Assembly (NCBI GenBank): GCA_018648585.1
Contig: JABGQW010000025.1
Span: 3,736-67,735 of the forward strand
Reading direction: 5' to 3'
Origin: a bacterium
GTDB taxonomy: Bacteria > Patescibacteriota > Gracilibacteria > UBA4473
Length of the DNA: 64,000 nt
Shown: piece after piece, positions 2,322 to 48,146 of the stretch
How the letters are laid out: every line of letters begins with the position of its first letter
Position numbering within the stretch: position 1 is the stretch's first letter
Notes under the pieces: generated by a model
Seen by the model: the letters and a program-made list of their open reading frames with translations, nothing else
Database searches by the model: none
What the model was told of the DNA's origin: nothing
Made by a program: the position numbers and the translations under genes

Positions 2322-5003
2322 ATGAAAATGCTCGTATCGCACTTCCAAAAAGAAAACCACGCCCGCTGGGTGTGGAGACGAGGTGTGCAATCGGATAATC
2401 TTGCGCTGCAAGTAAATCCAGATCAAAGTCCGCTCAAGATCGTAGATAAAAATAATCCGATTGGAGCGGCAGGAACGCTTTCCCTTGAAACCGAAGATTT
2501 TGCAAACCGAATTTTGGAAACAGCCACTGAGACAGGAACCGACATTTCCGTAAAAAATGAACGAGAAAAAAACACCAGAACTCCCGGAAACCCAATGGGA
2601 ATTTTGTTCGGCAGTAAATTTGAACAGCAGTGGGCAAATCCACTTTTTTGGCTCAATTTAACACTTTTTTCCAAAGATTCGATTCTCAAAAACGTAGGAA
2701 ACGCGGAAACAGAAATCCGCGAAATGCTTCAAAATTCTGCGTACGTCAGCTCCGGAGTGAGCTCTGCCCTGTATAATTCATCTCAGGCCTCCGCAATCAA
2801 AGCGATCTCCTTGGGACGAGAGTCTTATTTAGAAAAAACAGACTCTGCAACGTTTGAAGTTATCGCCCAAATGCTGGAAAATTCTTTCAGCGAGATTGGA
2901 ATTGATACTGCTCTAGAAGGAGAACTTGGGCAAAATGCATTACTTTCTCGAGAATGGATTCGAATTGTTGGCGATGTGAGTTTGTTGCGTACCAAGCGTC
3001 ACAAAAACATGCTCAAGGTTATCGTTGCGAACGTTCAAAAAGCGAAGAAAGAAGTTTTGGCGAACATCAAACGTGGTCGTGAGCATCTCACTCGACAACG
3101 AAAAAATATTGAAAGCAAAATCCAAACATATCAGACTGGAATGAAAACCAGCGCTGAATCCAGTAGAGAAAAAAACTTTTTCAATGGATTTGTTCAATCT
3201 GTTCTACAAAATCCAGATGCGTTTCTCGCCGGGGGATTGGTGGGGATGGTCGATATGAACCGTATTTTTGGAGATCCATTACCAAGCCGTGTTAAAATTT
3301 TGGATGCACTTAAAAGTAAATTTGAAGGAAAAATTTTGGCACTTGAGCGATCACAACAGCTCACACTCAACCAAGAACAGTTGATCCAAAATATGGATGA
3401 TCGTGAACAACTTTCAAATAACGCTCTCAACAACACAAATTTTGAAAATGTGTATAACGCGCTCGAGTCATTTAATGTCCAAACATATGAAGGAGCGACG
3501 GCACAAAAGCCAGAAAACGACGTACTAAAAATATTAACAAAAGGCTTGCGGCGGCTTGGGATAAACGCACGAGAAAGTATTTTTCGGAATGCTCCAGTAA
3601 ATCTCACAACCTCTGAACGACTTCTATTGTTGATTCAATTTTTGGGAAATAATCTTGATTTATTGGGAAATCAAAAATGTTCCCTCGATTTCAAACGAAC
3701 GCTCTACACATGGTTACAAGACACTCAGGCCGAAGAAGCTGAAACACTCGCACAAGGAACTCAGGCCGAAGCAGGAACTCCTGCGCAACGACGATATGTT
3801 TTAAATAATGCAATTGTCGTGCGCAACTCTGCACACACAGCGATTAATTCGCTCGAAGGGATTGATGAAGCACTCCGCGAACAAAATCCCGCTGCAATAA
3901 ATGAGAAATTTCAAACCATTCAGACATTTTTGACATCATTCAAAGAATTTTTTGGAGAAGATGGCGCAAGTGGCTCCCTCGCCCCAATGATTGAAAGAAT
4001 GCCTCGCGATGAACAAGATCTTCTTCATGCAATGAAAGATTTCAAAGGATTGCGTGAATATTTTTCAGAAACATTGGAGAACCTCCAAACACAAAGAAAA
4101 ACATATGTTGATGAAGTTTTGAAAGAACTTGCTCCAAATCCGGCTCTCCTCGAGGAAGAACGAGCCCGTGCGGCACGAGTTACTGAGCGCATGAGTGAAA
4201 TGGTTGGTGGTGGCGGATTGGCTTTTGCACGTGATGACTATGCAGCTCTTGAAAAAGCGCGATCCGATATATTTGAACGTGTCAAAAAATGGGATGATGC
4301 TACACAAGATCTGGCAAATCGTCATTTTGATCTCCCAAGCGCATCTGCTGGATTTGCCGGAATGATGCTCATCGGGGAAGGCCTTCAGCCTTCATTGGAC
4401 GCTATCCCAGAAGGAGGGGAAGAAGCTGCTGCCGTCGCAGAAGCAAATAATTTCAATGGTCTCATGAGACAGCGAATGCAGAGAACAATACAAACTGAAA
4501 AAGAATCTCAATTCAATCAAACGGTAGATGCCAATATGCAACACCAAATGGATACGCTCCTTGCTCGAAAAGTAGATGAAGATGGAGACAAAGTTGTAGA
4601 CCATGTCCCAGAGGCAGGAACAACTCTTGATCGATTAGAGGTCACTGATGTGACAAATGTCGATCGAACTATTACATTCCCAGACTCACTACAACACCGA
4701 GCAGTATTCGAAAATCTCACACTTATAAGATCTGGATTGCAAGAAAAAGAAGAGAAATATGTCGGAGCAGACCTAATGTTTCACAACAATACACACCTCG
4801 TACAAATCTTGGAAGAAAATGGAAAAGTCCTCGCAAAAAGCTGGAAAAAACCTGCTGACATTCATGGAGATCGAAATGCTATCCTACGAGTCGCACAAAA
4901 TGAAGAAGATGCGACGTGGATGATTCTCAATCTTTCGGCTGCTGGCACTCGTGCTGCCACAAGAACAAAAGGCGAACGAAGAAATATTGACCTCGCTGAG
5001 TAG
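2322..5003 (+). CDS. large hypothetical protein (893 aa, predicted mostly helical, no TM or signal peptide seen)
   Basis: Long uninterrupted ORF and third gene of a same-strand trio. No known motif recognised by eye. Confidence 0.65.
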   Translation: MKMLVSHFQKENHARWVWRRGVQSDNLALQVNPDQSPLKIVDKNNPIGAAGTLSLETEDFANRILETATETGTDISVKNEREKNTRTPGNPMGILFGSKFEQQWANPLFWLNLTLFSKDSILKNVGNAETEIREMLQNSAYVSSGVSSALYNSSQASAIKAISLGRESYLEKTDSATFEVIAQMLENSFSEIGIDTALEGELGQNALLSREWIRIVGDVSLLRTKRHKNMLKVIVANVQKAKKEVLANIKRGREHLTRQRKNIESKIQTYQTGMKTSAESSREKNFFNGFVQSVLQNPDAFLAGGLVGMVDMNRIFGDPLPSRVKILDALKSKFEGKILALERSQQLTLNQEQLIQNMDDREQLSNNALNNTNFENVYNALESFNVQTYEGATAQKPENDVLKILTKGLRRLGINARESIFRNAPVNLTTSERLLLLIQFLGNNLDLLGNQKCSLDFKRTLYTWLQDTQAEEAETLAQGTQAEAGTPAQRRYVLNNAIVVRNSAHTAINSLEGIDEALREQNPAAINEKFQTIQTFLTSFKEFFGEDGASGSLAPMIERMPRDEQDLLHAMKDFKGLREYFSETLENLQTQRKTYVDEVLKELAPNPALLEEERARAARVTERMSEMVGGGGLAFARDDYAALEKARSDIFERVKKWDDATQDLANRHFDLPSASAGFAGMMLIGEGLQPSLDAIPEGGEEAAAVAEANNFNGLMRQRMQRTIQTEKESQFNQTVDANMQHQMDTLLARKVDEDGDKVVDHVPEAGTTLDRLEVTDVTNVDRTITFPDSLQHRAVFENLTLIRSGLQEKEEKYVGADLMFHNNTHLVQILEENGKVLAKSWKKPADIHGDRNAILRVAQNEEDATWMILNLSAAGTRAATRTKGERRNIDLAE

Positions 5004-10455: not shown

Positions 10456-11202
10456 ATGAGTTTTAATTGGGAAGAAAAATTTTCAAAAATTCCAGCCATT
10501 TCTGATCCCGGTGAATTAGAAATGACACCAGAATTAAAAATTAAAGAAGATTTATACAATAAAACTTCCACTCCTGGTACATTTTTTCGTTCAACATTTC
10601 TTCCAAAAAGCGAATTGAAAAACGCTCAAGCAAAAGAATACACCAAAGAAATTGCCGAACATCAAGTTAATTGGAACGAAGTAAAAGATGAAATGATAGA
10701 TTTTGTAAACGAAGGAAATCCAAACATTGGCTGGAAATTACACCTCAACATTTCTCCTGAAAATGTTGTCTTTGTTGACAAATATTTACGAGAAAAAGGA
10801 ATCTGTTTTAAATTTCTTCATGGAAGTGAACTTGAAGATGGATTTATTTTTACAATTTATGTAGGAAGTTTTCAAAAAACACAGGAAATTTCCAAAATAC
10901 TGACAAAAGATTTACAAAATTTTTTAGCACAACCCCACAAAACAAATCATTTAGAATTTTCCGCAGGAGTTGTTGGGCGTTTCCGCGGAGCGGAATACAA
11001 AAACAAAGATTTTTTATTTTCTTCGTACAGCCCGAGTGGTTTTTCGTGGCTAGAATATGACAAACGCAATTATTCTCTCAAAAAAACAACCAAAATCGCC
11101 AATGAACAAGCGCTTGCGAAACAAAAAAAAGAAAGTGAAATTCGAGCAATAAAAGAACTTCAATTTCAATATGGCGATTATTTTTTTCCAGAAGAAAATT
11201 AA
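10456..11202 (+). CDS. hypothetical protein
   Basis: 248-aa ORF with an ATG start. Contains GWKLHLNISPENV; no secure family assignment. Confidence 0.55.
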   Translation: MSFNWEEKFSKIPAISDPGELEMTPELKIKEDLYNKTSTPGTFFRSTFLPKSELKNAQAKEYTKEIAEHQVNWNEVKDEMIDFVNEGNPNIGWKLHLNISPENVVFVDKYLREKGICFKFLHGSELEDGFIFTIYVGSFQKTQEISKILTKDLQNFLAQPHKTNHLEFSAGVVGRFRGAEYKNKDFLFSSYSPSGFSWLEYDKRNYSLKKTTKIANEQALAKQKKESEIRAIKELQFQYGDYFFPEEN

Positions 11203-11585
11203 AAATCCTGAAAATCTCGACGACTTCTCTTGTCTTTTTTTGATTCTCGCCCATCACCGTACCGAAATTTTGTTTTCCGCGTGTCCCGTTTTTGAGTTGA
11301 AATTTCTTTCGTTTTTTCGGCAGCAATCTCGCCAAACGCTGGATTGAGATCTTCGAAACATCCATCCGCCATTTCTTCTTTTCCACGTTTTTCGAGAAAT
11401 CGCAGCACGCGATATTTTTTCGTTCCCACGGGAAACTCCACCTCGACCACATCTTCAAGTTTCAAATTTTTTGCTGGTTTGGATTTTACGCCGTTCACCA
11501 AAACTTTCCCCGCGCGGCAAAATTCTCCCGCCTGCGTGCGAGATTTGACCATCCACGTCGTCCAAATCCATTTATCGAGCCGCAT
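11199..11585 (-). CDS. S4-domain RNA-binding protein (Hsp15/HslR-like)
   Basis: MRLDKWIW..KSRTQAGEFCRAGKVLVNGVKSKPAKNLKLEDVVEV is a typical S4 alpha-L motif. Basic C-terminal tail. Confidence 0.7.
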   Translation of the reverse strand: MRLDKWIWTTWMVKSRTQAGEFCRAGKVLVNGVKSKPAKNLKLEDVVEVEFPVGTKKYRVLRFLEKRGKEEMADGCFEDLNPAFGEIAAEKTKEISTQKRDTRKTKFRYGDGRESKKDKRSRRDFQDF

Positions 11586-11588
11586 TTT

Positions 11589-12125
11589 TTACAGAGAAAT
11601 CCAATACCGACGCGTCATCCCCGCTCCGACGTGTTCAATTTCTTCGTCCGCACGCGGGACGATATTTTCGAGGATTCCACCACATTTTTCGATAATTTTT
11701 GCCGATGCAAAATTTTTGTCGTCACACGTAATCAGCACTTTCTTGAGCCCAATTTTTTTAATTTTTGCGAGCGCCAGTTCAAGCATTTTTGTTCCAAATC
11801 CCTCGCCCCGACGCGACGCACGAACCAAATATCCGATGTGTCCGCCGAGTTTTTCAAGATTCGGAGTGAGTCGATGCCGAAAATTAAGTTTTCCCAACCA
11901 CTCGTCACCGTCCACCAGCCACCACGTTGTCGCCGGAGCCCAGCCCGGAGGCAGGTTTTTTCCCTCGCGATAATCCTCAAGTTTTTGCACGTGCGCATCA
12001 AAATCTTCGGACGCAATAAATCGCTTTTCTCGAGAAGTGAAACGCGCTGCTGCAAAATCATGTGCTTCTTGTTGCGCCGCGAGAAAACTTTCTCGATATT
12101 TTGAGGACGGAAAAACCAGTTCCAT
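11589..12125 (-). CDS. GNAT family N-acetyltransferase
   Basis: GYLVRASRRGEGFGTKMLELALAKIKKIGLKKVLITCDDKNFAS (acetyl-CoA binding-type segment). Start moved in-frame to MELVF, which removes the overlap with valS. Confidence 0.75.
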   Translation of the reverse strand: MELVFPSSKYRESFLAAQQEAHDFAAARFTSREKRFIASEDFDAHVQKLEDYREGKNLPPGWAPATTWWLVDGDEWLGKLNFRHRLTPNLEKLGGHIGYLVRASRRGEGFGTKMLELALAKIKKIGLKKVLITCDDKNFASAKIIEKCGGILENIVPRADEEIEHVGAGMTRRYWISL

Positions 12126-12135
12126 TTTTATTTTT

Positions 12136-15100
12136 TTAAAGATTTGAAAGTTGTTCTCGGAGTTTTTGCAACTCGTTCGCATTTTTTTCGAGCTGCGATT
12201 TTGTTTCTGCGACGAGCGACGCGGGTGCTTTTTCGATGTAATTTTTATTTTTCAAACGAGATTCGAGCGCCACGATCGATTTTTCGAGTGTGGAAATTTC
12301 GGTCGTGAGCCGCGTTTTTTCCGCCGCCGCATCGAATGGAATCTCAACAAAAATCTCCATTCCCTCCGATAAAACCGTCACTGAGTGTTCTGGCTTTTGA
12401 GAAATTTTCTCCGCTACTTTCACCGTCGAACAACCTCCCAGCACGGCGATCAAATCACTCTGTGCTGCAATTTCGTCCGCTGATTTTCCCGCGGAAATGT
12501 GAATCGAAATTTTTTCACGCGGCGGCAATTTTTTCTCCGCGCGAACCTTTCGCAATTCCGTCACAATCATCTGTATTTGAGCGAAAAGTGCCACCGATTT
12601 TTTGTCTTGAAAATCTGGCGCCGGAAAACTTTTTTCGATGAGAAATTCGTCATCTTTTGCCAAATCTTGCCACAATTTTTCCGTGACAAACGGAACGAGT
12701 GGATGCGCAAGTTTGAGAATTTCAAGAAAAATTCCGTACAAAAACGCAGGATTTCTCGACACTTTCGAAGTTTCTACAAACCAGTTGCAAAACTCATCCC
12801 ACACGAAATGATAAATTTCATCGCCCGCAGCAGAAATTTCGTACTTTTTCAATTTTTGCGAAACATTTGCACAAACCTCGGAAAACCGGTGCAGTAGCCA
12901 TTTTTCCGATAAATTTTTCGGTGTCAACGACGGGATCACATTTTCGGATTCAGAAAGTTGAAACTGAACAAATCGTCCCGCGTTCCAGAGTTTGTTGACG
13001 AAATTTCGGTACCCAGAAACTTTGGATTTTCCCAGCGGAATCGGATTCCCCGGCGTCGCCCCGATCACGAGCGAGAGCCGCACCGCGTCCGCACCAACTT
13101 CGGAAATTACTTCGAGCGGATCAATTCCATTTCCCTTCGTTTTCGACATTTTTTGACCGTGTTCGTCGCACACCAATCCGTGCAAATACACCGTGTGAAA
13201 CGGACATTTCCCGGTCGCGTACCGACCGAACATCACCATTCGCAAAACCCAAAAAGTGAGAATATCGTGCCCGGTCTCCAAAACATCGTTCGGATAAAAT
13301 CGCTGAAAATCCGTGGCCGATTCGTCCGGCCAACCGAGCGTGGAAAACGGCCACAGCGCGGAACTAAACCACGTGTCGAGCGTATCTTCGTCCTGCGTGA
13401 GCGAAGAAATTTCGAGCGAAAAATGCTGCAGATTTTCGAGTTTTTTCCAGGTTTTGAAAAATTCTTGCAATTTTCCAATCGATCCGTCGCGATGAATTTT
13501 TTGCAAAATTCCCAAAAATCCACCGTGCGAAACCACGAGCGCGTTTTTTTCTTTTTTGAGTTTGGCAAAAACCGCGTGCGCACGCGCCTCCAATTGCTCA
13601 AGATTTTCTGCGTTTGAATCCAGTTCTCCCGCTTCGATTTTTCGAGCAATCGCGTCGTACGGAAAATTTTCTGACGCGCCAAAAGCTTCCGCCAAGTTCT
13701 TTCCTTCCACCGCTCCCAGTCCCCACTCCCGCAATTCTGGCCAGATTTCAATTTTTGGAGAAATACCAAGTTCTGTTCGCAAAATTTCCGCCGTTTCAAT
13801 CGCGCGCTCCAAATCGGAGCAGATAATTTTTTCGAAATTTTTGTACGCCAATTTTTTTGCAGCGTCCCTCGCCTGCGATTTTCCTTTTTCGGTCAAATAG
13901 ATTCCGGAATGCTGTCCCTGTACTTTTTTGGAAACATTCCACTCACTTTCTCCGTGTCGAAAAAATGAAATTTCATTTCCGCGAGGGTCTTGCAAAAACT
14001 CAAAATCCCTCGACTCACCGCGCCGCCACTCCCAATTTTTTCGGAATCGAACAAATTTTTCGGTGTCATCGGAGCGACTGAAATGAAACAGTGCCGCCGT
14101 GATATTTTTGTGTCCGATCACCAAAACTTCGCCCGTTTCATTTTGAAGTTTTGAAAAAACAGACTGCGCGCGATCTCTTATCTGATCAAGCGATTCATCT
14201 TTCAGTTCGTCAAAATTAATTTGAATCGGGCTGACGCGACGAAAATTTGCACCCGATTTTTGCGCCAACTCTGTGGAACAAAATTCATCGAGTTCCGGCC
14301 AGACCTCAATTTGCGTATTATTCGCAAAAAGCCCCGCAACCAGCTCTGCAGTTTCTTTTCCTCGTTTTAAATTCGAACAAATAATTTTCGAAATTTTACG
14401 ATCTTTGACCTGTTCAAAAATTTCCTCCGCCGTCCGGCGTCCCGATTCTGTGAGTGAAAAATCACCGCCGATCACATTTTCGACGTTCGCCTGACTTTCT
14501 CCGTGTCGCGCAAAAATGACGGATTTTTTTTCGGGCAGAAAAATTTTCCCCGCTTCGTCGTACCACACCGGAATCCGGTGTCCCCACCAAATCTGCCGCG
14601 AGATGCACCAGTCACGGAGATTGTCCGTCCACTGAAAATACGTTTTTTCAAATCGTTTCGGCACAATTTTTATGTTTCCGTCGCGCACCGCGTCCGCCGT
14701 CAATTTGCACAGCGTGGTTTTTTTACCAGAAAATTTGTCGACAAATTCTTTGTTGACGGAAATGAACCACTGCGGCGACAGCATCGGCTCGACCACCGTC
14801 CCGGATCGGTAACATTTTGGGACGCGATTTGCGTGCGGCCGTTTTTGGAAAAGAAGACTTTTTTCCACCATAATTTCTCCCGCTTTTTTGCGCGCGGCGG
14901 CGACAGACAAACCTTCGCACAGTCCCGCGATCGCCGTCATTTTTCCCTTGAAATCTATTTTTTGGATCAGTTCCAAATCGTATTTTTGCGCGAGCGCGAA
15001 ATCCTCCGAAGAATGCGACGCGGAAATTGTCATCGCGCCGGTGCCAAATTCGGGATCGATCACCTCGTCCGCCACCACCCAAAACTTTCGCGTTCCCGCG

Positions 15101-15924
15101 TACGTTTCGGCTTCAAATTTCATTCCCTCAAGTTTTTTTCCGGGAACAATCTCTGTAATTTCGAAATCTTTTCGCAGCTGCGTGTGCTCGTTGAAATATT
15201 TTTTTGTCACGACGCATTCACGCCCCGCGGCATTTTTTGCGCGCACGTACTCCGCCGTCGGATGCACCATCACCGGGCTGTCGGCACATTTTGTTTCTGC
15301 GCGCACGGTTCCGAGAATGAACGGCCCGCACCAAAATTCGTAAAAATCTTCCTCGTTGTCCTCCCACTCGACTTCGTCGTCCGCCAAAACCGACTGCGCG
15401 CCGACCGACCAGTTGATCATTCGGTGTCCGCGTGTGATCAGTCCGTCGTCGGCAAGTTTTTTGAAAATCCAATTCACAGAAAAATTCCGCTCGCGATCAA
15501 ACGTGTACGCCTCCCGCGACCAGTCAAGATGCGCGCCCATTTTTTTGATCTGGTGCACGATTCGGTCGTGTTTTTCTGTGGCAAATTTTCGACACTCGCC
15601 CAAAAATCCCTCGCGCGACATTTCCTCGCGAGATTTAATTTCCAAATATTTGAGCACAACATTTTCGGTCGCGATCGCTGCGTGGTCCGTCCCGGGAAGC
15701 CACAAAACTTCGTGTCCGGTCATTTTTTTGTACCGAATCAAAATATCCTCGACCGCCAGCATCGCGGCGTGCCCGAGATGAAGCTGCCCCGTCACGTTTG
15801 GCGGCGGGAGCGGAATTGTGTACGATTTTTTCGCGGAATTTTCGTCCGCGCGCATCACGCCCGCAGATTCCCAATTTTCGTAAATTTTATCCTCGGAACC
15901 GTTGTGATCGTAATTTTTTTCCAT
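12136..15924 (-). CDS. valS: valine--tRNA ligase carrying an internal ~375-aa double histidine-phosphatase insertion
   Basis: HIGH-type PPNVTGQLHLGHA, WWGHRIPVWY, DTLDTWFSSALWPFSTLGWP, KMSKS as KMSKTKGN, and a C-terminal coiled coil. The insert holds two RHGES...SHGG-type modules (see findings). Confidence 0.95.
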   Translation of the reverse strand: MEKNYDHNGSEDKIYENWESAGVMRADENSAKKSYTIPLPPPNVTGQLHLGHAAMLAVEDILIRYKKMTGHEVLWLPGTDHAAIATENVVLKYLEIKSREEMSREGFLGECRKFATEKHDRIVHQIKKMGAHLDWSREAYTFDRERNFSVNWIFKKLADDGLITRGHRMINWSVGAQSVLADDEVEWEDNEEDFYEFWCGPFILGTVRAETKCADSPVMVHPTAEYVRAKNAAGRECVVTKKYFNEHTQLRKDFEITEIVPGKKLEGMKFEAETYAGTRKFWVVADEVIDPEFGTGAMTISASHSSEDFALAQKYDLELIQKIDFKGKMTAIAGLCEGLSVAAARKKAGEIMVEKSLLFQKRPHANRVPKCYRSGTVVEPMLSPQWFISVNKEFVDKFSGKKTTLCKLTADAVRDGNIKIVPKRFEKTYFQWTDNLRDWCISRQIWWGHRIPVWYDEAGKIFLPEKKSVIFARHGESQANVENVIGGDFSLTESGRRTAEEIFEQVKDRKISKIICSNLKRGKETAELVAGLFANNTQIEVWPELDEFCSTELAQKSGANFRRVSPIQINFDELKDESLDQIRDRAQSVFSKLQNETGEVLVIGHKNITAALFHFSRSDDTEKFVRFRKNWEWRRGESRDFEFLQDPRGNEISFFRHGESEWNVSKKVQGQHSGIYLTEKGKSQARDAAKKLAYKNFEKIICSDLERAIETAEILRTELGISPKIEIWPELREWGLGAVEGKNLAEAFGASENFPYDAIARKIEAGELDSNAENLEQLEARAHAVFAKLKKEKNALVVSHGGFLGILQKIHRDGSIGKLQEFFKTWKKLENLQHFSLEISSLTQDEDTLDTWFSSALWPFSTLGWPDESATDFQRFYPNDVLETGHDILTFWVLRMVMFGRYATGKCPFHTVYLHGLVCDEHGQKMSKTKGNGIDPLEVISEVGADAVRLSLVIGATPGNPIPLGKSKVSGYRNFVNKLWNAGRFVQFQLSESENVIPSLTPKNLSEKWLLHRFSEVCANVSQKLKKYEISAAGDEIYHFVWDEFCNWFVETSKVSRNPAFLYGIFLEILKLAHPLVPFVTEKLWQDLAKDDEFLIEKSFPAPDFQDKKSVALFAQIQMIVTELRKVRAEKKLPPREKISIHISAGKSADEIAAQSDLIAVLGGCSTVKVAEKISQKPEHSVTVLSEGMEIFVEIPFDAAAEKTRLTTEISTLEKSIVALESRLKNKNYIEKAPASLVAETKSQLEKNANELQKLREQLSNL

Positions 15925-15981
15925 TGAAAATGTGGAGAAATCACGCCGAGTGTACCGATTTTTGCGGGTTTTTCAACGCAG

Positions 15982-43847: not shown

Positions 43848-46800
43848 TTAGTCACTGTTTACTTTTGCAGTCGTGTCAATATTGAGCAAGTATCCGTTCA
43901 ACCAATCAGCAGATGTATCTGAGTGAGAAGTTGAAGACTCATCTGACCACACAACAGTTCCTGCTGCTGCAGCACGTGTTGTTGCACCGGCATGAGAATT
44001 ATCGGTTGAAATAGTAACAGACACTGTATCATCATCAGCCGCAGGCGTTCCTGCTGTTGTATTCTCCGTATTATTCATAAGAAGTGCGTACGTTCGAGAA
44101 TCACCAGCAGACAATTTCTGATTGGCGAATGTGACCGTAACCGTTCCAGTAATATCATCAGCTGCTGTGTACGTATCTGCAATCGCAGATGTTACAACCG
44201 CAGTATTGTCGATATTTCCGTCCGTTTTCACTTGTTTTACTTCGAATACAGCATCTGCTGAAGCTTTCATTCCAGCAAGATTCACTGTGAATTTCAATTT
44301 ACCCAATTCAATTTGACGTGCGCTATCCGCAGTCACGACAAATCGGTAAATTTCTTGTGAAGCCGCAAGCGGTGTTCCACTAAAATTCTGTGTTGCTGCG
44401 TGTCCAACCGACATTTCTGTTCGGTATGCGACAAACTCTTGTCCGGTGACAGAATTTGCAGTGACATTCGCTGTTGCCAAATCAGATCCAGTAGCAGCCG
44501 TAACTGCTTCCACTCCATTTTCTTGCTCAGATGTATCTAACGCAAGAGTAAGTCGTTTTCCTGTCTGATCAGCCTGAGTGATATCGCGAACACTCACTTT
44601 GATTGACACGTATGTCGACTCGTCTTTTGGAACGCTGATGCGATCCGCATTTCCGAGTTGGAAGTGAAGATCTCCGCCTGTCATCTGTTTTGTCTGAACA
44701 AGTTGTCCAGCAGCATTATAAAGCTTGAAATCTACGCGATCACCAATATCAGTTCCTCCAACTGAATTCGTAAAGTACAAATCTCTGATCTGAACTTCAT
44801 CATCAGCCGCGTTAAATCGAACACGCATCACTTCTACGTCTTGAGTACCTGCTACCAAGACATCTCCGTAAATGGTCGTTCCAAGATCAACGCTCAAACT
44901 TCCTGAATTCACCAATTCAAATTCATTTCCTCCCAAGGCCGTTGCACTAACCAACGCTGAACCATTGTACACGTAGACGGTTTGTCCATTCTCAACATTG
45001 TCTGCGTCCACCGCAGTCACTTCGATTTGCATTGTGTGTTTGAGATTCAATGCGGTAACTCCGTCGGTTTCAACTCCAACCGTACCATTTGCATCTCCAA
45101 CAACCACGGTACCAACCTCTGCTGAGTTCACATTTCCTGTGATAAATGGTGAAGCTGTTTCGGTGAGAATTGCTGCTGCTCCTGCACCTGTAACCGTATA
45201 TCCAAGTCCAGCCAATGCTGCTCGAAGGTAAGTTCCTTGTTCTGCCGCAGTTGGAGTAGCTCCAAGCTGCAAGCTTGCAACTCCGTCATCACACGTTGGG
45301 TCGGTGATAACACCATCTGCAACATAAGTCAAAACACAGATTGTGCTTCCTGCGTCGTCAGTAAGCGTAATTTTATCTCCTACTGCACCTGCTGTAGAGA
45401 TCGTCAATGTTGTCGCACCCGCTGTTCCTGCGGTTCCAATTGCGGAATCGAAGGTAAGAGTCGTCCCAGTCGCTGTAGTCAAGTTCTCTGTTGTAGTTGT
45501 TGATTCCAAAACAGTGTAGGTTGTTGCCGCAGCGCTTGCTGCGTTTTTGATCGTCAAATAAACATCCTCGTCTGCTTCGTACAAAGTAGCATCAGCAACT
45601 GTTGCTGTTGCGCTATTTGCAACGACCGTTGCAAGAGTTTCCGACACAACCCCTGCCGAAGCTTCGATCGTGTTGAAGACAACTGTAAATTCTTTTTGTC
45701 CTGCGGATGGAATCACAACAGACAAATCATTGAATGTTGCTGCTCCAGCTGAAGTCAGGTTTTTGCTTGATCCCTGCTGAGTTCCATCGACAAAGATTGC
45801 CGCGGTGTACTCCGTGTAGGTGTCCGCACTTCCTGTTCCAACTCCTTGGATCGATGCAGAAGTCACATTGACGTCTCCTGAATCATTGTTGTCCAAGACA
45901 AACTCCATAAAAGTCACATCATCCACTCCCGCGACGATTTTTCCACCGGAAAGTCCGTCACTTTTTGTGATTGAGATGCTTGAAACCTGCACTTCCACAA
46001 AAGAAGCAACTGCCGATCCCAACATTTGATCTGTCGGAACCTGATCTCCGGTCGAGATGTACTCTGGAGATTCGAAATCCGTCGAGTTCAAACTCACTTT
46101 GATGCTTGTTCCCGTCACTGCGTCTGAAGTAATATTACCAACCAATTTCATGATTGATGCTCCCGCGATTTCAAACGTAGTATCAAAAGCCAATACTGCG
46201 TCTGTTATACTTGGAGTGGTGCTTGCACTCGTGAAATTATTTTCACTGTCAACGAGCTGATCGTTCAAAAACAATCGGAAGTTGTCAAAATAAGTATTCA
46301 AATTAGTAAAAGCCGTCACTGTTGCACCAGACACTGTTGTGTCTACGATTCCCGAAGAATCTGCCAACTCAACCGTCACACCGTCCAACAAAAGTGGCTG
46401 GTCAACGACGATACGTGCTGTCATAAAAACAACATCGTTGGATCCGGGAGCGTACTCCTGATTTCCGAGAGATGCTGGATCTCGAGACACGTTCAAGTCT
46501 CCGCTGTCGATGGTGTAAGCCATCAAACGAGCACAATTGTCTTCTGCTGCTTCTGCTGTACAGCTCACACCCGTAGATGTAGCCCCTGTCGCTGAAGCAA
46601 AAGAATATCCATCTCCATTTCCGATTGCTTTGACTCCGAAGCTGGTGCCGATCTCGATCGCCACGATATCTTCGTAGTTGTCCACTTTGAAGTTGATGTT
46701 GTCTCCGTCCTCGGCGCTGACGATATCTGCTCGCATTGAGAAGATTCGTGAGTCACCGTCTTCGATGACGTATCCACCAGTCACACCGTTGTCCAATCGG

Positions 46801-48146
46801 AACGTGATGTAATCACCGTCCATGATTGTTTCGGCACTGACCTGCTCTCCGCTCACGTACAAAGCAACATTTTCGAGAATATTCTCGATTTCTGCCGTTC
46901 CGTCGTTTTTGAAGGTAACAGCTCGCAATTCAACATCTTTGTTGGTGTTTGAGCTATTTTGCATTCGGAATTTACCAATCTCGATAAAGTTGTCTCCAAC
47001 GTCGATGTTGGTGTTTGATCCAAGTGCTGAGAAAGTAACTTCTGACACTTCGTAATCTGCAACTTCCATTTCTTCTCCTTCGAGTGGAAAGTCTCCGACT
47101 ACGTTGGCTGCCGTGCTGCTGAGATCATCAGCGCTGACGACTGCCAATCGGTTGTGGTGTCCGATATTGTGATCATTCGTTCCGTATTTCGAAGAAGCCA
47201 CGATATCAGCCATCAAAGTCTGACCTGCTGGCACCACGATTGGTGGGTTGAAACGCAATTGAACAACATCGTCGTTGTTGATGGATGCGTCGTTTCCGAC
47301 TTTGAATCCGTCAATTTCCATCCACACGCTGTCGAAATCGTCGTTGTCTCCCAAACCGAGACGAGTCACGGTCAAGTTTGCAACTTCAACATCTGAATCA
47401 TCAGATGCTGTAAATTCGAAAGTTGTGTAGGGAACACTCGTTGCGTTAAATGGAACATTTGTTCCGCGAGGAGTATCGTTGGAGATTACCACCTCAAGCG
47501 TTCCTTCGGCTGGGCCGGTAGGAGCTGCTACAACCAACTGAGAATCGTAAACAACACGTGCCGTTTCTGCACGAGTCACAGGATTTGCGGGACCAAAAGT
47601 TCCGTCGCTGTATCCTGACATCAGTCCGTTGTTGTACGCAGTTTCAGCGTAGGTATAAAACCAATCGCTTGCTGCTACGTCTTTGAAGTGAGGGCCACCA
47701 GTCGTGTCGAGATCAATCTCGAACGCGTTGATAACCATTTTTGCCAATTCAACTCGGTTGATTCCGTTTCCAGGACGGAACGCTCCGTCTGGGTAACCGT
47801 CAATCCATCCGTAGTTGTACATAGTTTCGATGTAATCGTAAAACCATGCAGAAGTTGCTACGTCTGGGAAGTGAGGTCCTCCGTATGTATCGAGTTCAAC
47901 ACCTGAAGCTAAAACAATAACTTTGGCAACCTCGGCTCGGTTCAGCTGACGACTTGGGGCAAATGACCCGTCATCGTTTCCTGAAAGAACTCCTTGGTCC
48001 ATAAGTTCGCCGATAGCTTCCTCGGCCCATGATGGGATTTCTGACTCATCAGTGAAACCAAGATACGCGAATGTGGTCGCAGGTGCGATCATAAACGCCA
48101 TCCCAGCCAATGCCAATGAGGCGATCCCTTTCTTAAAGATATTCAT
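43848..48146 (-). CDS. S-layer protein with three N-terminal SLH domains
   Basis: Signal peptide MNIFKKGIASLALAGMAFMIAPATTFA. Three SLH repeats (F.D....W....I......G...G..DG.F.P.....R.E.A). About 1200 aa of T/A/V/G/D/S-rich beta-type sequence. Confidence 0.88.
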   Translation of the reverse strand: MNIFKKGIASLALAGMAFMIAPATTFAYLGFTDESEIPSWAEEAIGELMDQGVLSGNDDGSFAPSRQLNRAEVAKVIVLASGVELDTYGGPHFPDVATSAWFYDYIETMYNYGWIDGYPDGAFRPGNGINRVELAKMVINAFEIDLDTTGGPHFKDVAASDWFYTYAETAYNNGLMSGYSDGTFGPANPVTRAETARVVYDSQLVVAAPTGPAEGTLEVVISNDTPRGTNVPFNATSVPYTTFEFTASDDSDVEVANLTVTRLGLGDNDDFDSVWMEIDGFKVGNDASINNDDVVQLRFNPPIVVPAGQTLMADIVASSKYGTNDHNIGHHNRLAVVSADDLSSTAANVVGDFPLEGEEMEVADYEVSEVTFSALGSNTNIDVGDNFIEIGKFRMQNSSNTNKDVELRAVTFKNDGTAEIENILENVALYVSGEQVSAETIMDGDYITFRLDNGVTGGYVIEDGDSRIFSMRADIVSAEDGDNINFKVDNYEDIVAIEIGTSFGVKAIGNGDGYSFASATGATSTGVSCTAEAAEDNCARLMAYTIDSGDLNVSRDPASLGNQEYAPGSNDVVFMTARIVVDQPLLLDGVTVELADSSGIVDTTVSGATVTAFTNLNTYFDNFRLFLNDQLVDSENNFTSASTTPSITDAVLAFDTTFEIAGASIMKLVGNITSDAVTGTSIKVSLNSTDFESPEYISTGDQVPTDQMLGSAVASFVEVQVSSISITKSDGLSGGKIVAGVDDVTFMEFVLDNNDSGDVNVTSASIQGVGTGSADTYTEYTAAIFVDGTQQGSSKNLTSAGAATFNDLSVVIPSAGQKEFTVVFNTIEASAGVVSETLATVVANSATATVADATLYEADEDVYLTIKNAASAAATTYTVLESTTTTENLTTATGTTLTFDSAIGTAGTAGATTLTISTAGAVGDKITLTDDAGSTICVLTYVADGVITDPTCDDGVASLQLGATPTAAEQGTYLRAALAGLGYTVTGAGAAAILTETASPFITGNVNSAEVGTVVVGDANGTVGVETDGVTALNLKHTMQIEVTAVDADNVENGQTVYVYNGSALVSATALGGNEFELVNSGSLSVDLGTTIYGDVLVAGTQDVEVMRVRFNAADDEVQIRDLYFTNSVGGTDIGDRVDFKLYNAAGQLVQTKQMTGGDLHFQLGNADRISVPKDESTYVSIKVSVRDITQADQTGKRLTLALDTSEQENGVEAVTAATGSDLATANVTANSVTGQEFVAYRTEMSVGHAATQNFSGTPLAASQEIYRFVVTADSARQIELGKLKFTVNLAGMKASADAVFEVKQVKTDGNIDNTAVVTSAIADTYTAADDITGTVTVTFANQKLSAGDSRTYALLMNNTENTTAGTPAADDDTVSVTISTDNSHAGATTRAAAAGTVVWSDESSTSHSDTSADWLNGYLLNIDTTAKVNSD

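Follow-up and report, generated by a model that had tools for sequence, protein, structure and literature searches.

A valyl-tRNA synthetase from an uncultured Patescibacterium with two predicted histidine-phosphatase modules in place of its CP3 element

The 64,000-nucleotide (nt) stretch of contig JABGQW010000025.1 analysed here (the window; positions refer to it unless amino acids, aa, are given) encodes on its reverse strand a valyl-tRNA synthetase (ValRS) of 1262 aa plus stop in a single reading frame (valS, 12136..15924). The gene call draws on the list of open reading frames (ORFs), the match to the valS equivalog model NF004349 and the recovery of the identical protein on at least 21 contigs, and the product is a genuine single-polypeptide ValRS of an uncultured Patescibacterium of the Gracilibacteria/Peregrinibacteria type. 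Inside this enzyme lie two complete branch-1 histidine-phosphatase (PF00300) modules whose catalytic residues, judged by profile matching and alignment, are intact in both. Sequence comparison across related ValRS and isoleucyl-tRNA synthetases (IleRS) indicates that the phosphatase module behaves as a cassette of variable copy number, with zero to four copies at CP3, at the junction of CP core and CP2 and occasionally elsewhere, and we are in very little doubt that this architecture is genuine and belongs to a family. As a described entity the combination is new, yet public metagenome data contain it in abundance, where it goes by generic names.

The insert separates two sequence blocks, WWGHRIPVWY (aa 446-455) and DTLDTWFSS (starting at aa 847), which the first-pass annotation of this DNA had correctly described as normally lying only tens of residues apart. 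In ordinary ValRS the distance is ~35-40 residues in the alignment consensus, and it is 25 residues in the close insert-free relative P0281; here, 391 aa lie between them (aa 456-846, 13387-14559), an insert that was originally delimited as 13402-14526 (aa 467-841). Both the ORF list and the sequence bear out that the peptides quoted at that time stand at their given positions in one uninterrupted 1262-aa ORF.

Module 1 (aa 456-645, 13990..14559, on the reverse strand like all valS features below) matches His_Phos_1 with E=1.8e-23, and module 2 (aa 646-846, 13387..13989) does so with E=4.7e-36. Scored singly against the same Pfam model, they reach 83.7 and 124.7 bits, respectively, at a gathering score of 21.7. 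Both modules read R-H-G-N-R-E-H at the catalytic columns and thereby contain the branch-1 set of Arg-His(nucleophile)-Gly, Asn, a second Arg (SxLxR), the acid Glu and the second His. In module 1, these residues are R473-H474-G475 (14500-14508), N480, R521, E546 and H605 (14110-14112, in IGHKNI); in module 2, they are R656-H657-G658 (13951-13959), N663, R707, E733 and H800 (13525-13527, in VSHGG). Alignments to FBPase-2 and PhoE put E543/E546, H605, E733 and H800 at catalytic residues, and the initial description of two complete modules with an intact catalytic set is upheld by this profile check. Module 1 is without the G..EG loop motif after the Glu. A hidden Markov model of ValRS-embedded modules matches each of the two nearly end to end, with module 1 spanning positions 1-200 of 205, and the modules share 31% identity with each other.

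Structure prediction with AlphaFold2 (AF2) agrees with this assignment. Module 1 alone is modelled with a per-residue confidence (pLDDT) of 87.5 and a predicted template-modelling score (pTM) of 0.85, and its pLDDT values range from 60 to 94 in the full model, in which those of module 2 range from 80 to 95. The top 50 PDB matches of the module 1 model are all members of the histidine-phosphatase family, the nearest folds (TM ~0.7, ~20% identity) being the FBPase-2 domain, a riboflavin-pathway histidine-family phosphatase, TIGAR, PhoE, phosphoserine phosphatases, Rv3214 and CobC. Neither module reaches the cut-off of a characterised subfamily in NCBIfam, including GpmB, PspA and the RNase H/acid phosphatase fusion: the scores are 44.5 bits against 81.7 (TIGR01258) as well as 54.8 and 71.9 bits against 225 (NF038349) for dPGM, 52.8 and 79.2 bits against 162.9 for CobC (TIGR03162), and 29.4 bits against 74.5 for module 2 with SixA (TIGR00249), which module 1 does not match at all. 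Since no curated subfamily cut-off is reached, the modules look like generic compact phosphatases rather than mutases.

An intein or other self-splicing insert was considered and rejected, as the insert starts with DEAGK, ends with LTQDE followed by D, and contains only His_Phos_1 according to Pfam. A mobile element was likewise rejected, the insert having neither signatures of such elements nor intein-like termini.

Outside the insert, the predicted structure indicates that the synthetase is intact and that its core fold is preserved. Its N-terminal part (aa 1-455, 14560..15924) comprises the first Rossmann half, the CP core, the CP1 editing domain and CP2 (Pfam tRNA-synt_1 at aa 13-474; confident AF2 model superposing on 1GAX) and contains the HIGH motif as HLGH (aa 49-52, 15769-15780). 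The C-terminal part (aa 847-1262, 12139..13386; identified by Pfam, pLDDT 90-98) comprises the second Rossmann half, the anticodon-binding domain and the coiled coil, with KMSKT at aa 925-929 (13138-13152). Over the whole protein, Pfam reports tRNA-synt_1 at E=1e-124, His_Phos_1 at E=1e-58 in two stretches, Anticodon_1 at aa 1007-1142 and Val_tRNA-synt_C at aa 1198-1262, while NF004349 (NCBIfam) scores 867.1 bits against a cut-off of 704 and TIGR00422 scores 773.6 bits against 612.1. The standard genetic code is used throughout the gene. The AF2 model of aa 1-1195 (pLDDT 80.6, pTM 0.69) is confident over the ValRS core, and Foldseek ranks the ValRS-tRNA complex of T. thermophilus first among its matches (1GAX_A; E=4e-48, TM 0.81 on target length). 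The earlier view that the rest of the enzyme looks functional is supported in so far as that part is intact. As for how the insert sits on the enzyme, which the first-pass annotation had proposed to approach by structure prediction, the model confirms the preserved core; how the module active sites face the tRNA is an inference on our part. No comparable insert was found in solved synthetases by a structure search with the ValRS model.

The CP1 editing domain shows a peculiarity of its own. Its motif (14980-15030, aa ~295-315) reads GTGAMTISASHSSEDF as opposed to the canonical GTG.VKITPAHD.ND(Y/F), with Thr for the Lys of VKITP and Ser for the first Asp; the second Asp is retained (SEDF). This second D of ..ND is the conserved editing Asp, going by the residue roles of E. 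coli ValRS. The canonical motif is present in the insert-free relatives P0281 and P0282, whereas the divergent one is typical of the window's clade, whose editing chemistry may differ from the canonical one.

As to the site of insertion, CP3 of class Ia synthetases has been defined in the IleRS literature as the segment between WG.P.P.W and D.WF.S; it corresponds to residues 473-534 in Candida IleRS and 459-526 in yeast IleRS (ScIleRS), and binds Zn in the T. thermophilus enzyme (PMC7191050, PMC7955072). The preceding CP2-CP3 linker of ScIleRS, 453-ARDWNVSRNRYWG-465, lines the pocket of the tRNA CCA end and of reveromycin A (PMC7955072). The homologous linker of the window ValRS, WCISRQIWWGHRIPVWY (aa 439-455, 14560..14610), lies directly upstream of the insert, and the counterpart of the yeast ARDWNVSRNRYWG is RDWCISRQIWWG. 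By homology to yeast IleRS, the modules thus start ~10 residues downstream of the segment lining the A76 pocket. The Cys pairs of a Zn knuckle (CxxC...CxxC) are absent from the borders of the window insert (VWYDEAGK...SLTQDEDTLDTW). The two tandem modules take the place of the small CP3, which lies on the surface and follows the CP2-CP3 linker, ahead of the second Rossmann half.

This architecture is not the singular case that the first-pass annotation had implied, because insertions of one to four modules recur in dozens of Patescibacteria ValRS and IleRS clusters, and the window protein itself is listed in NCBI nr under the generic name 'class I tRNA ligase family protein [bacterium]' (MBT3349435.1, MBT6995916.1, MBT7772777.1). 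An exhaustive search of 1.84 billion 50%-identity representatives yielded 12 matches at E<1e-30 and 644 at E<1e-10, and hosts were counted among the best 150 clusters of that search. Embedded modules (one to four, at two or three sites) occur in at least 41 of these 150 clusters, 34 of them ValRS-like and seven IleRS-like, and no hosts other than these two kinds were found among the 150 best matches. In a word-indexed protein search, ~18 clusters of ValRS fragments with one His_Phos_1 module each at the window's insertion site were recovered, their source labels including Candidatus Gracilibacteria, Parcubacteria and Patescibacteria. That search returned matches of at most ~790 aa and missed the window's own 1262-aa protein even though the collection contains it, meaning that long synthetases are under-reported by it.

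In the majority architecture, a single module sits at CP3 (e.g. P0126, P0130 and P0001), and in P0009-P0014 it is nested in the retained CxxC...CxxC knuckle of CP3. Two modules at CP3 are found in the window ValRS and in P0125. A second insertion site lies between the CP core (QWF) and CP2: it is occupied alone, with the Zn knuckle intact, in P0140, together with one module at CP3 in P0122/P0268 and P0123, and together with at least three modules at CP3 in P0121. P0212 has a module after TLGWP. Among IleRS (P0141-P0144, P0155), either both modules are at CP3 or only one is, with the other lying further downstream. Pfam reports four His_Phos_1 stretches in P0121 and two each in P0125, P0123 and the IleRS P0144.

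In a tree of ValRS cores from which the modules had been excised, the window falls into a clade with 99-100% bootstrap support that mixes one-module, two-module, site-1-plus-site-2, site-1-plus-three and site-1-only states. Of its relatives, the nearest (P0277, the same as locus L009; 72-73% identity) bears the label Candidatus Gracilibacteria and another that of Peregrinibacteria. A comparison of ValRS orthologues with and without the insert, as had been suggested from the outset, turned up both kinds: P0125 and P0130 carry it, while the close relatives P0281 and P0282 (57% and 56% identity, respectively, in the N-terminal part) have a CP3 of 25 residues, which reads DEKEKIVAVGDTKNPDKSWTQDKD in P0281. 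A further relative (P0278, 59% identical) bears a different insert with no family assigned at the same CP3 spot. These insert-free and differently inserted relatives mark CP3 and CP2 as insertion hot-spots in the window's lineage.

Several side observations concern these inserts. The module-bearing IleRS P0141-P0144, P0155, P0275 and P0276 are of type 2 (eukaryote-like) and have one or two His_Phos_1 modules at the CP3-equivalent site, with the additional module of P0155 lying downstream in the C-terminal half. Since their first modules form one clade of the module tree and their second modules another, the IleRS pair appears to be old and conserved. In P0147 (aa ~455-580) and P0210 (aa ~440-580), as well as in P0220 and P0251, there is an additional segment ahead of the phosphatase module; that of P0147 has a sub-threshold match to the PUA-like, RNA-associated ASCH domain (PF04266, 20.5 bits against 21.2, E=8e-4), and the match of P0210 is much weaker. 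The C-terminal ~100 aa of P0278 and aa ~640-890 of P0123 represent a non-phosphatase domain inserted at the CP3/CP2 loops. Its sole Pfam signal is a weak match to LPD13 (22.8 bits against 27), and the motif EVFI..IFAK(I/M)R(N/G)W is common to both inserts.

Because the global module tree (neighbour-joining, 200 bootstraps) has very low support and is robust only in local clades, we infer rather than read off the history of the pair: sequence scores suggest that it goes back to a module already embedded in the synthetase, which was duplicated or shuffled as a whole unit, and not to a free two-domain phosphatase. The window modules score 233-257 against ValRS-embedded single modules, 213 against each other and at most 207 against free tandem di-phosphatases. 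Module 1 ends with FEFLQDPRGNE, similar to the usual junction between module and ValRS (e.g. FFVAPEGENLRQD in P0001), which fits a duplication that took in the entire unit. Module 2 has its best match in the site-1 module of P0121 (41% identity), and those of module 1 lie mostly among site-2 modules, hinting at shuffling between sites. Capture of a ready-made free tandem phosphatase is not favoured in view of the higher scores against ValRS-embedded single modules. Free-standing proteins of ~400-430 aa with two tandem His_Phos_1 domains account for 29 of the 150 best matches (P0136, P0145, P0149, P0197 and 25 others), and P0197 has a signal-peptide-like N-terminus.

Conservation provides a measure of what is being maintained in these inserts. 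Of 54 modules embedded in diverged hosts, all have the nucleophile His, 52 have the first Arg and 53 the second, and 36 have the full catalytic set. Based on these counts, the phosphate-binding pocket is the universally conserved feature, and catalytic competence is common but not universal. Compared with L009, which ends inside module 1 and is frameshifted, module 1 of the window is 65% identical and the N-terminal part of the ValRS 72% identical, suggesting that module 1 is under constraint comparable to that of the essential core. Searches of GTDB genomes and contigs of the JGI metagenomes for orthologues of intermediate distance with the same tandem pair gave only distant phosphatases.

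What might such modules do on a synthetase? The explanation that we consider best, to which as a whole we assign a probability of roughly one in three (about 0.35), is that they are tethered phosphomonoesterases, or at least phosphate-pocket binders, whose target is some phosphorylated ligand arriving at the synthetase. We consider it probable, though by no means certain, that the modules are catalytically active phosphatases. The most plausible ligand would be a phosphate on the tRNA acceptor end, be it a 3'-phosphate, a 2',3'-cyclic phosphate or a pyrophosphate; such phosphates block aminoacylation, and in this scheme clearing of the end would be coupled to charging. A nucleotide would be the alternative ligand. 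A tRNA-end ligand fits with the position of CP3 directly after the CCA-pocket linker and with the restriction to ValRS and IleRS hosts among the 150 best matches. It also fits with the sub-threshold ASCH match beside the module of P0147 and with the existence of natural phosphate lesions at the CCA end: toxSAS enzymes pyrophosphorylate the CCA end and thereby block charging (bioRxiv 10.1101/2021.04.30.441581, PMC11559606).

Even so, we regard tRNA ends as a doubtful candidate for the actual substrate. More speculative still is a built-in device for tRNA-end repair or immunity that, working right at the synthetase, would rid tRNA(Val), or tRNA(Ile) in the case of IleRS, of a 3'-phosphate, a 2',3'-cyclic phosphate or a 3'-pyrophosphate added by a toxin and so restore a chargeable CCA-OH; two or more modules could then divide the chemistry or widen its specificity. 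The first-pass annotation had offered the processing of phosphorylated tRNA ends, the hydrolysis of nucleotide alarmones and a regulatory phospho-switch as possible roles, to which the present analysis adds only positional plausibility, through CP3, and the finding that the phosphate pocket is the invariant feature.

A number of points weigh against a tethered enzyme or binder that serves the synthetase. The nearest relatives of the modules in both sequence and structure are small-molecule phosphatases (FBPase-2, PhoE, CobC, phosphoserine phosphatase and TIGAR), and we know of no histidine phosphatase acting on RNA ends. The modules are mildly acidic (isoelectric point 5.4-5.8), as are their free-standing relatives, and are therefore no obvious RNA binders. 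Close relatives such as P0281 and P0282 do with a CP3 of 25 residues and no module at all, and the variable sites and one to four copies elsewhere argue against a precise geometric coupling to the active site. Within the window's own clade, the acid Glu and/or the second His have been lost in P0130, P0139, P0127, P0140 and module 2 of P0122. Neither the window nor the gene neighbourhoods of free-standing relatives (L010, L011) gave a clue to the substrate. Finally, CP3 has been described as lying opposite CP2 (PMC7191050), and no direct contact between CP3 and tRNA is described in the structural literature consulted.

Several of these points lend themselves to another explanation, which we rate as somewhat unlikely, namely that a metabolic phosphatase of the PhoE, GpmB, CobC or phosphoserine-phosphatase type moonlights in a permissive loop of an essential, constitutively expressed gene of a streamlined genome, with no tie to charging. 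The small-molecule phosphatases among the best sequence and fold matches and the acidity shared with free-standing homologues are what would be expected here, as are the variable sites and copy numbers; moreover, free-standing (~180 aa) and free tandem (~410 aa) relatives interleave with the embedded modules in the module tree. Yet the insertions are internal and recur at the homologous CP3 of the paralogous ValRS and IleRS and in no other host among the 150 best matches, neither module reaches the cut-off of a characterised family, and degenerate modules without the acid Glu or second His are nevertheless retained.

Alternatively, the modules would be structural or ligand-sensing replacements of CP3, mainly scaffolds or phosphate-pocket binders (serving, for instance, as allosteric sensors of a phosphorylated metabolite or as partner docks) for which catalysis is dispensable. 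The near-invariance of Arg, His and Arg alongside loss of the Glu or second His in several modules of the window's clade supports this possibility, and so does the nesting of the module inside CP3 in forms bearing the Zn knuckle. The complete catalytic sets of both window modules and of 36 of the 54 embedded modules speak against it, however, and relatives with a 25-residue CP3 imply that no bulky CP3 is structurally required; overall, we consider this explanation unlikely.

It is improbable that the module is a near-neutral or selfishly spreading cassette that is tolerated at permissive surface loops and brings its host no benefit. Presence, site and copy number do vary among close relatives, and unrelated inserts (P0278, P0123) as well as ASCH-like segments occupy the same loops. 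However, the catalytic and pocket residues are conserved across modules of only 20-40% identity, the divergence of module 1 is about as slow as that of the essential core, and the insert, in which Pfam recognises only His_Phos_1, bears neither intein-like termini nor the signatures of a mobile element.

An assembly chimera or a frameshifted gene pair, as might be suspected from two related loci of metagenome-assembled genomes (L001 and L009) in which valS is broken across reading frames, has a negligible probability, given that the window valS is single-frame, that it is nt-identical in ENA, JGI and Logan assemblies and that full-length, single-frame, module-bearing homologues are numerous. 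The identical 1262-aa protein was found on its at least 21 contigs in independent assemblies (ENA ERZ27237601, JGI 3300004109, Logan SRR3719505 and others), the three loci compared at the nt level (L006-L008) differ from the window valS at 0 nt, and one cluster mate of the protein has a single-residue difference, V739G. Composition is unremarkable over the insert, and repeat-induced assembly error is excluded because the modules are only 31% identical. The chimeric assembly against which the first-pass annotation had advised a check can thus be set aside. The two broken loci spread valS over three reading frames (L001, 2609-6480 of GCA_942491595.1; L009, 3424-5177 of GCA_012034115.1). The frame breaks of L009, which lie in A-rich runs, resemble errors of sequencing or assembly more than genuinely split genes, and the L001 ValRS has modules at site 1 and site 2.

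Compared with known systems, the window ValRS shares the HIGH and KMSKS motifs, CP1 editing domain, CP2, anticodon-binding domain and C-terminal coiled coil with T. thermophilus ValRS (1GAX) and with other canonical ValRS of bacteria. It differs from these enzymes by carrying 391 aa of two phosphatases in place of a CP3 of ~25-40 residues, which includes a Zn knuckle in the Thermus type, and by its GTGAMTISASHSSEDF editing motif in place of GTG.VKITPAHD.ND. Insertion site, module family and junction sequences are the same as in single-module ValRS and IleRS of Patescibacteria (P0126, P0130, P0001), but the window enzyme has two modules, a number reached or exceeded by only a few others (two in P0125 and in the IleRS P0141-P0144, at least four in P0121), and both are intact, whereas several single-module relatives in its clade have lost the catalytic Glu or second His.

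Among fusions, the N-acetyltransferase domain-containing isoleucine--tRNA ligase (NF040702) is likewise a class Ia synthetase with an extra catalytic domain, in that case a GNAT and not a histidine phosphatase. The same phosphatase fold occurs in 6-phosphofructo-2-kinase/fructose-2,6-bisphosphatase and in RNase H/acid phosphatase (NF005567, Rv2228c type), both among the best matches, and the latter fusion illustrates that a branch-1 fold can be joined to a nucleic-acid enzyme. In these two proteins the domains are fused end to end, in contrast to the tandem nested in a loop of the host catalytic domain here, and the window modules score far below the cut-offs of those families (62-86 bits against 326). 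Free tandem di-His_Phos proteins (~400-430 aa, e.g. P0136 and P0197) also have two His_Phos_1 domains in a row, but these are not embedded in another protein and score lower with the window modules than ValRS-embedded modules do (<=207 against 233-257).

Aminoacyl-tRNA synthetases are among the most conserved enzymes, and domains added to them have repeatedly brought editing, signalling and complex formation. The novelty in the present case is the accretion of nested, tandem, copy-variable catalytic domains of an unrelated superfamily on a class Ia synthetase. Literature searches found no relevant description of a synthetase-phosphatase combination, and NCBIfam has no model for phosphatase-bearing synthetases although it has one for GNAT-bearing IleRS (NF040702). 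The thought that this could be a common, already annotated ValRS subtype therefore holds only in part: the architecture is widespread, but it has no annotation as a subtype and no description in the literature that could be searched. The embedded modules are apparently under selection for phosphate-binding and catalytic residues, unannotated, across candidate-phyla bacteria. If they act on tRNA ends or nucleotides at the synthetase, this would constitute a new coupling of RNA-end chemistry and charging, possibly as a counter-measure against toxins that target tRNA ends; tRNA-end repair in particular would add a new activity to the histidine-phosphatase fold and a new kind of quality control to aminoacylation. 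If metabolic moonlighting applies instead, the family would illustrate the packing of functions into permissive loops of essential genes in ultra-small genomes. Being full length, consistent across independent datasets and intact in both modules, the window ValRS is a good entry point for experiments.

Turning to the gene neighbourhood, a sigma-70-like promoter match (TTGAAA, 16-nt spacer, TACACT; 15949..15976, reverse strand) was predicted by consensus scan just upstream of the valS ATG and is given for context only. A hairpin with a T-run lies immediately downstream of the gene preceding valS. Downstream of valS and co-directional with it are genes for a GNAT (Acetyltransf_3, RimJ/RimL-like) and an S4-domain (Hsp15-like) protein (11199-12182, reverse strand). 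This arrangement is kept in all assemblies compared and may represent an operon of translation-related genes. In agreement with the first-pass annotation, no second valS was found in the window, nor was any further His_Phos coding region. An Rfam scan of the window reported two tRNA genes only and no regulatory RNA, and the PADLOC defence models gave a single partial winged-helix match of 22.6 bits, which is below threshold. The other neighbours in the window are housekeeping or envelope genes. Three window ORFs on the forward strand, at 2322-5003, 19-1848 and 10456-11202 (893, 609 and 248 aa, respectively), have no Pfam match, and a 1432-aa protein with SLH domains is encoded at 43848-48146 on the reverse strand.

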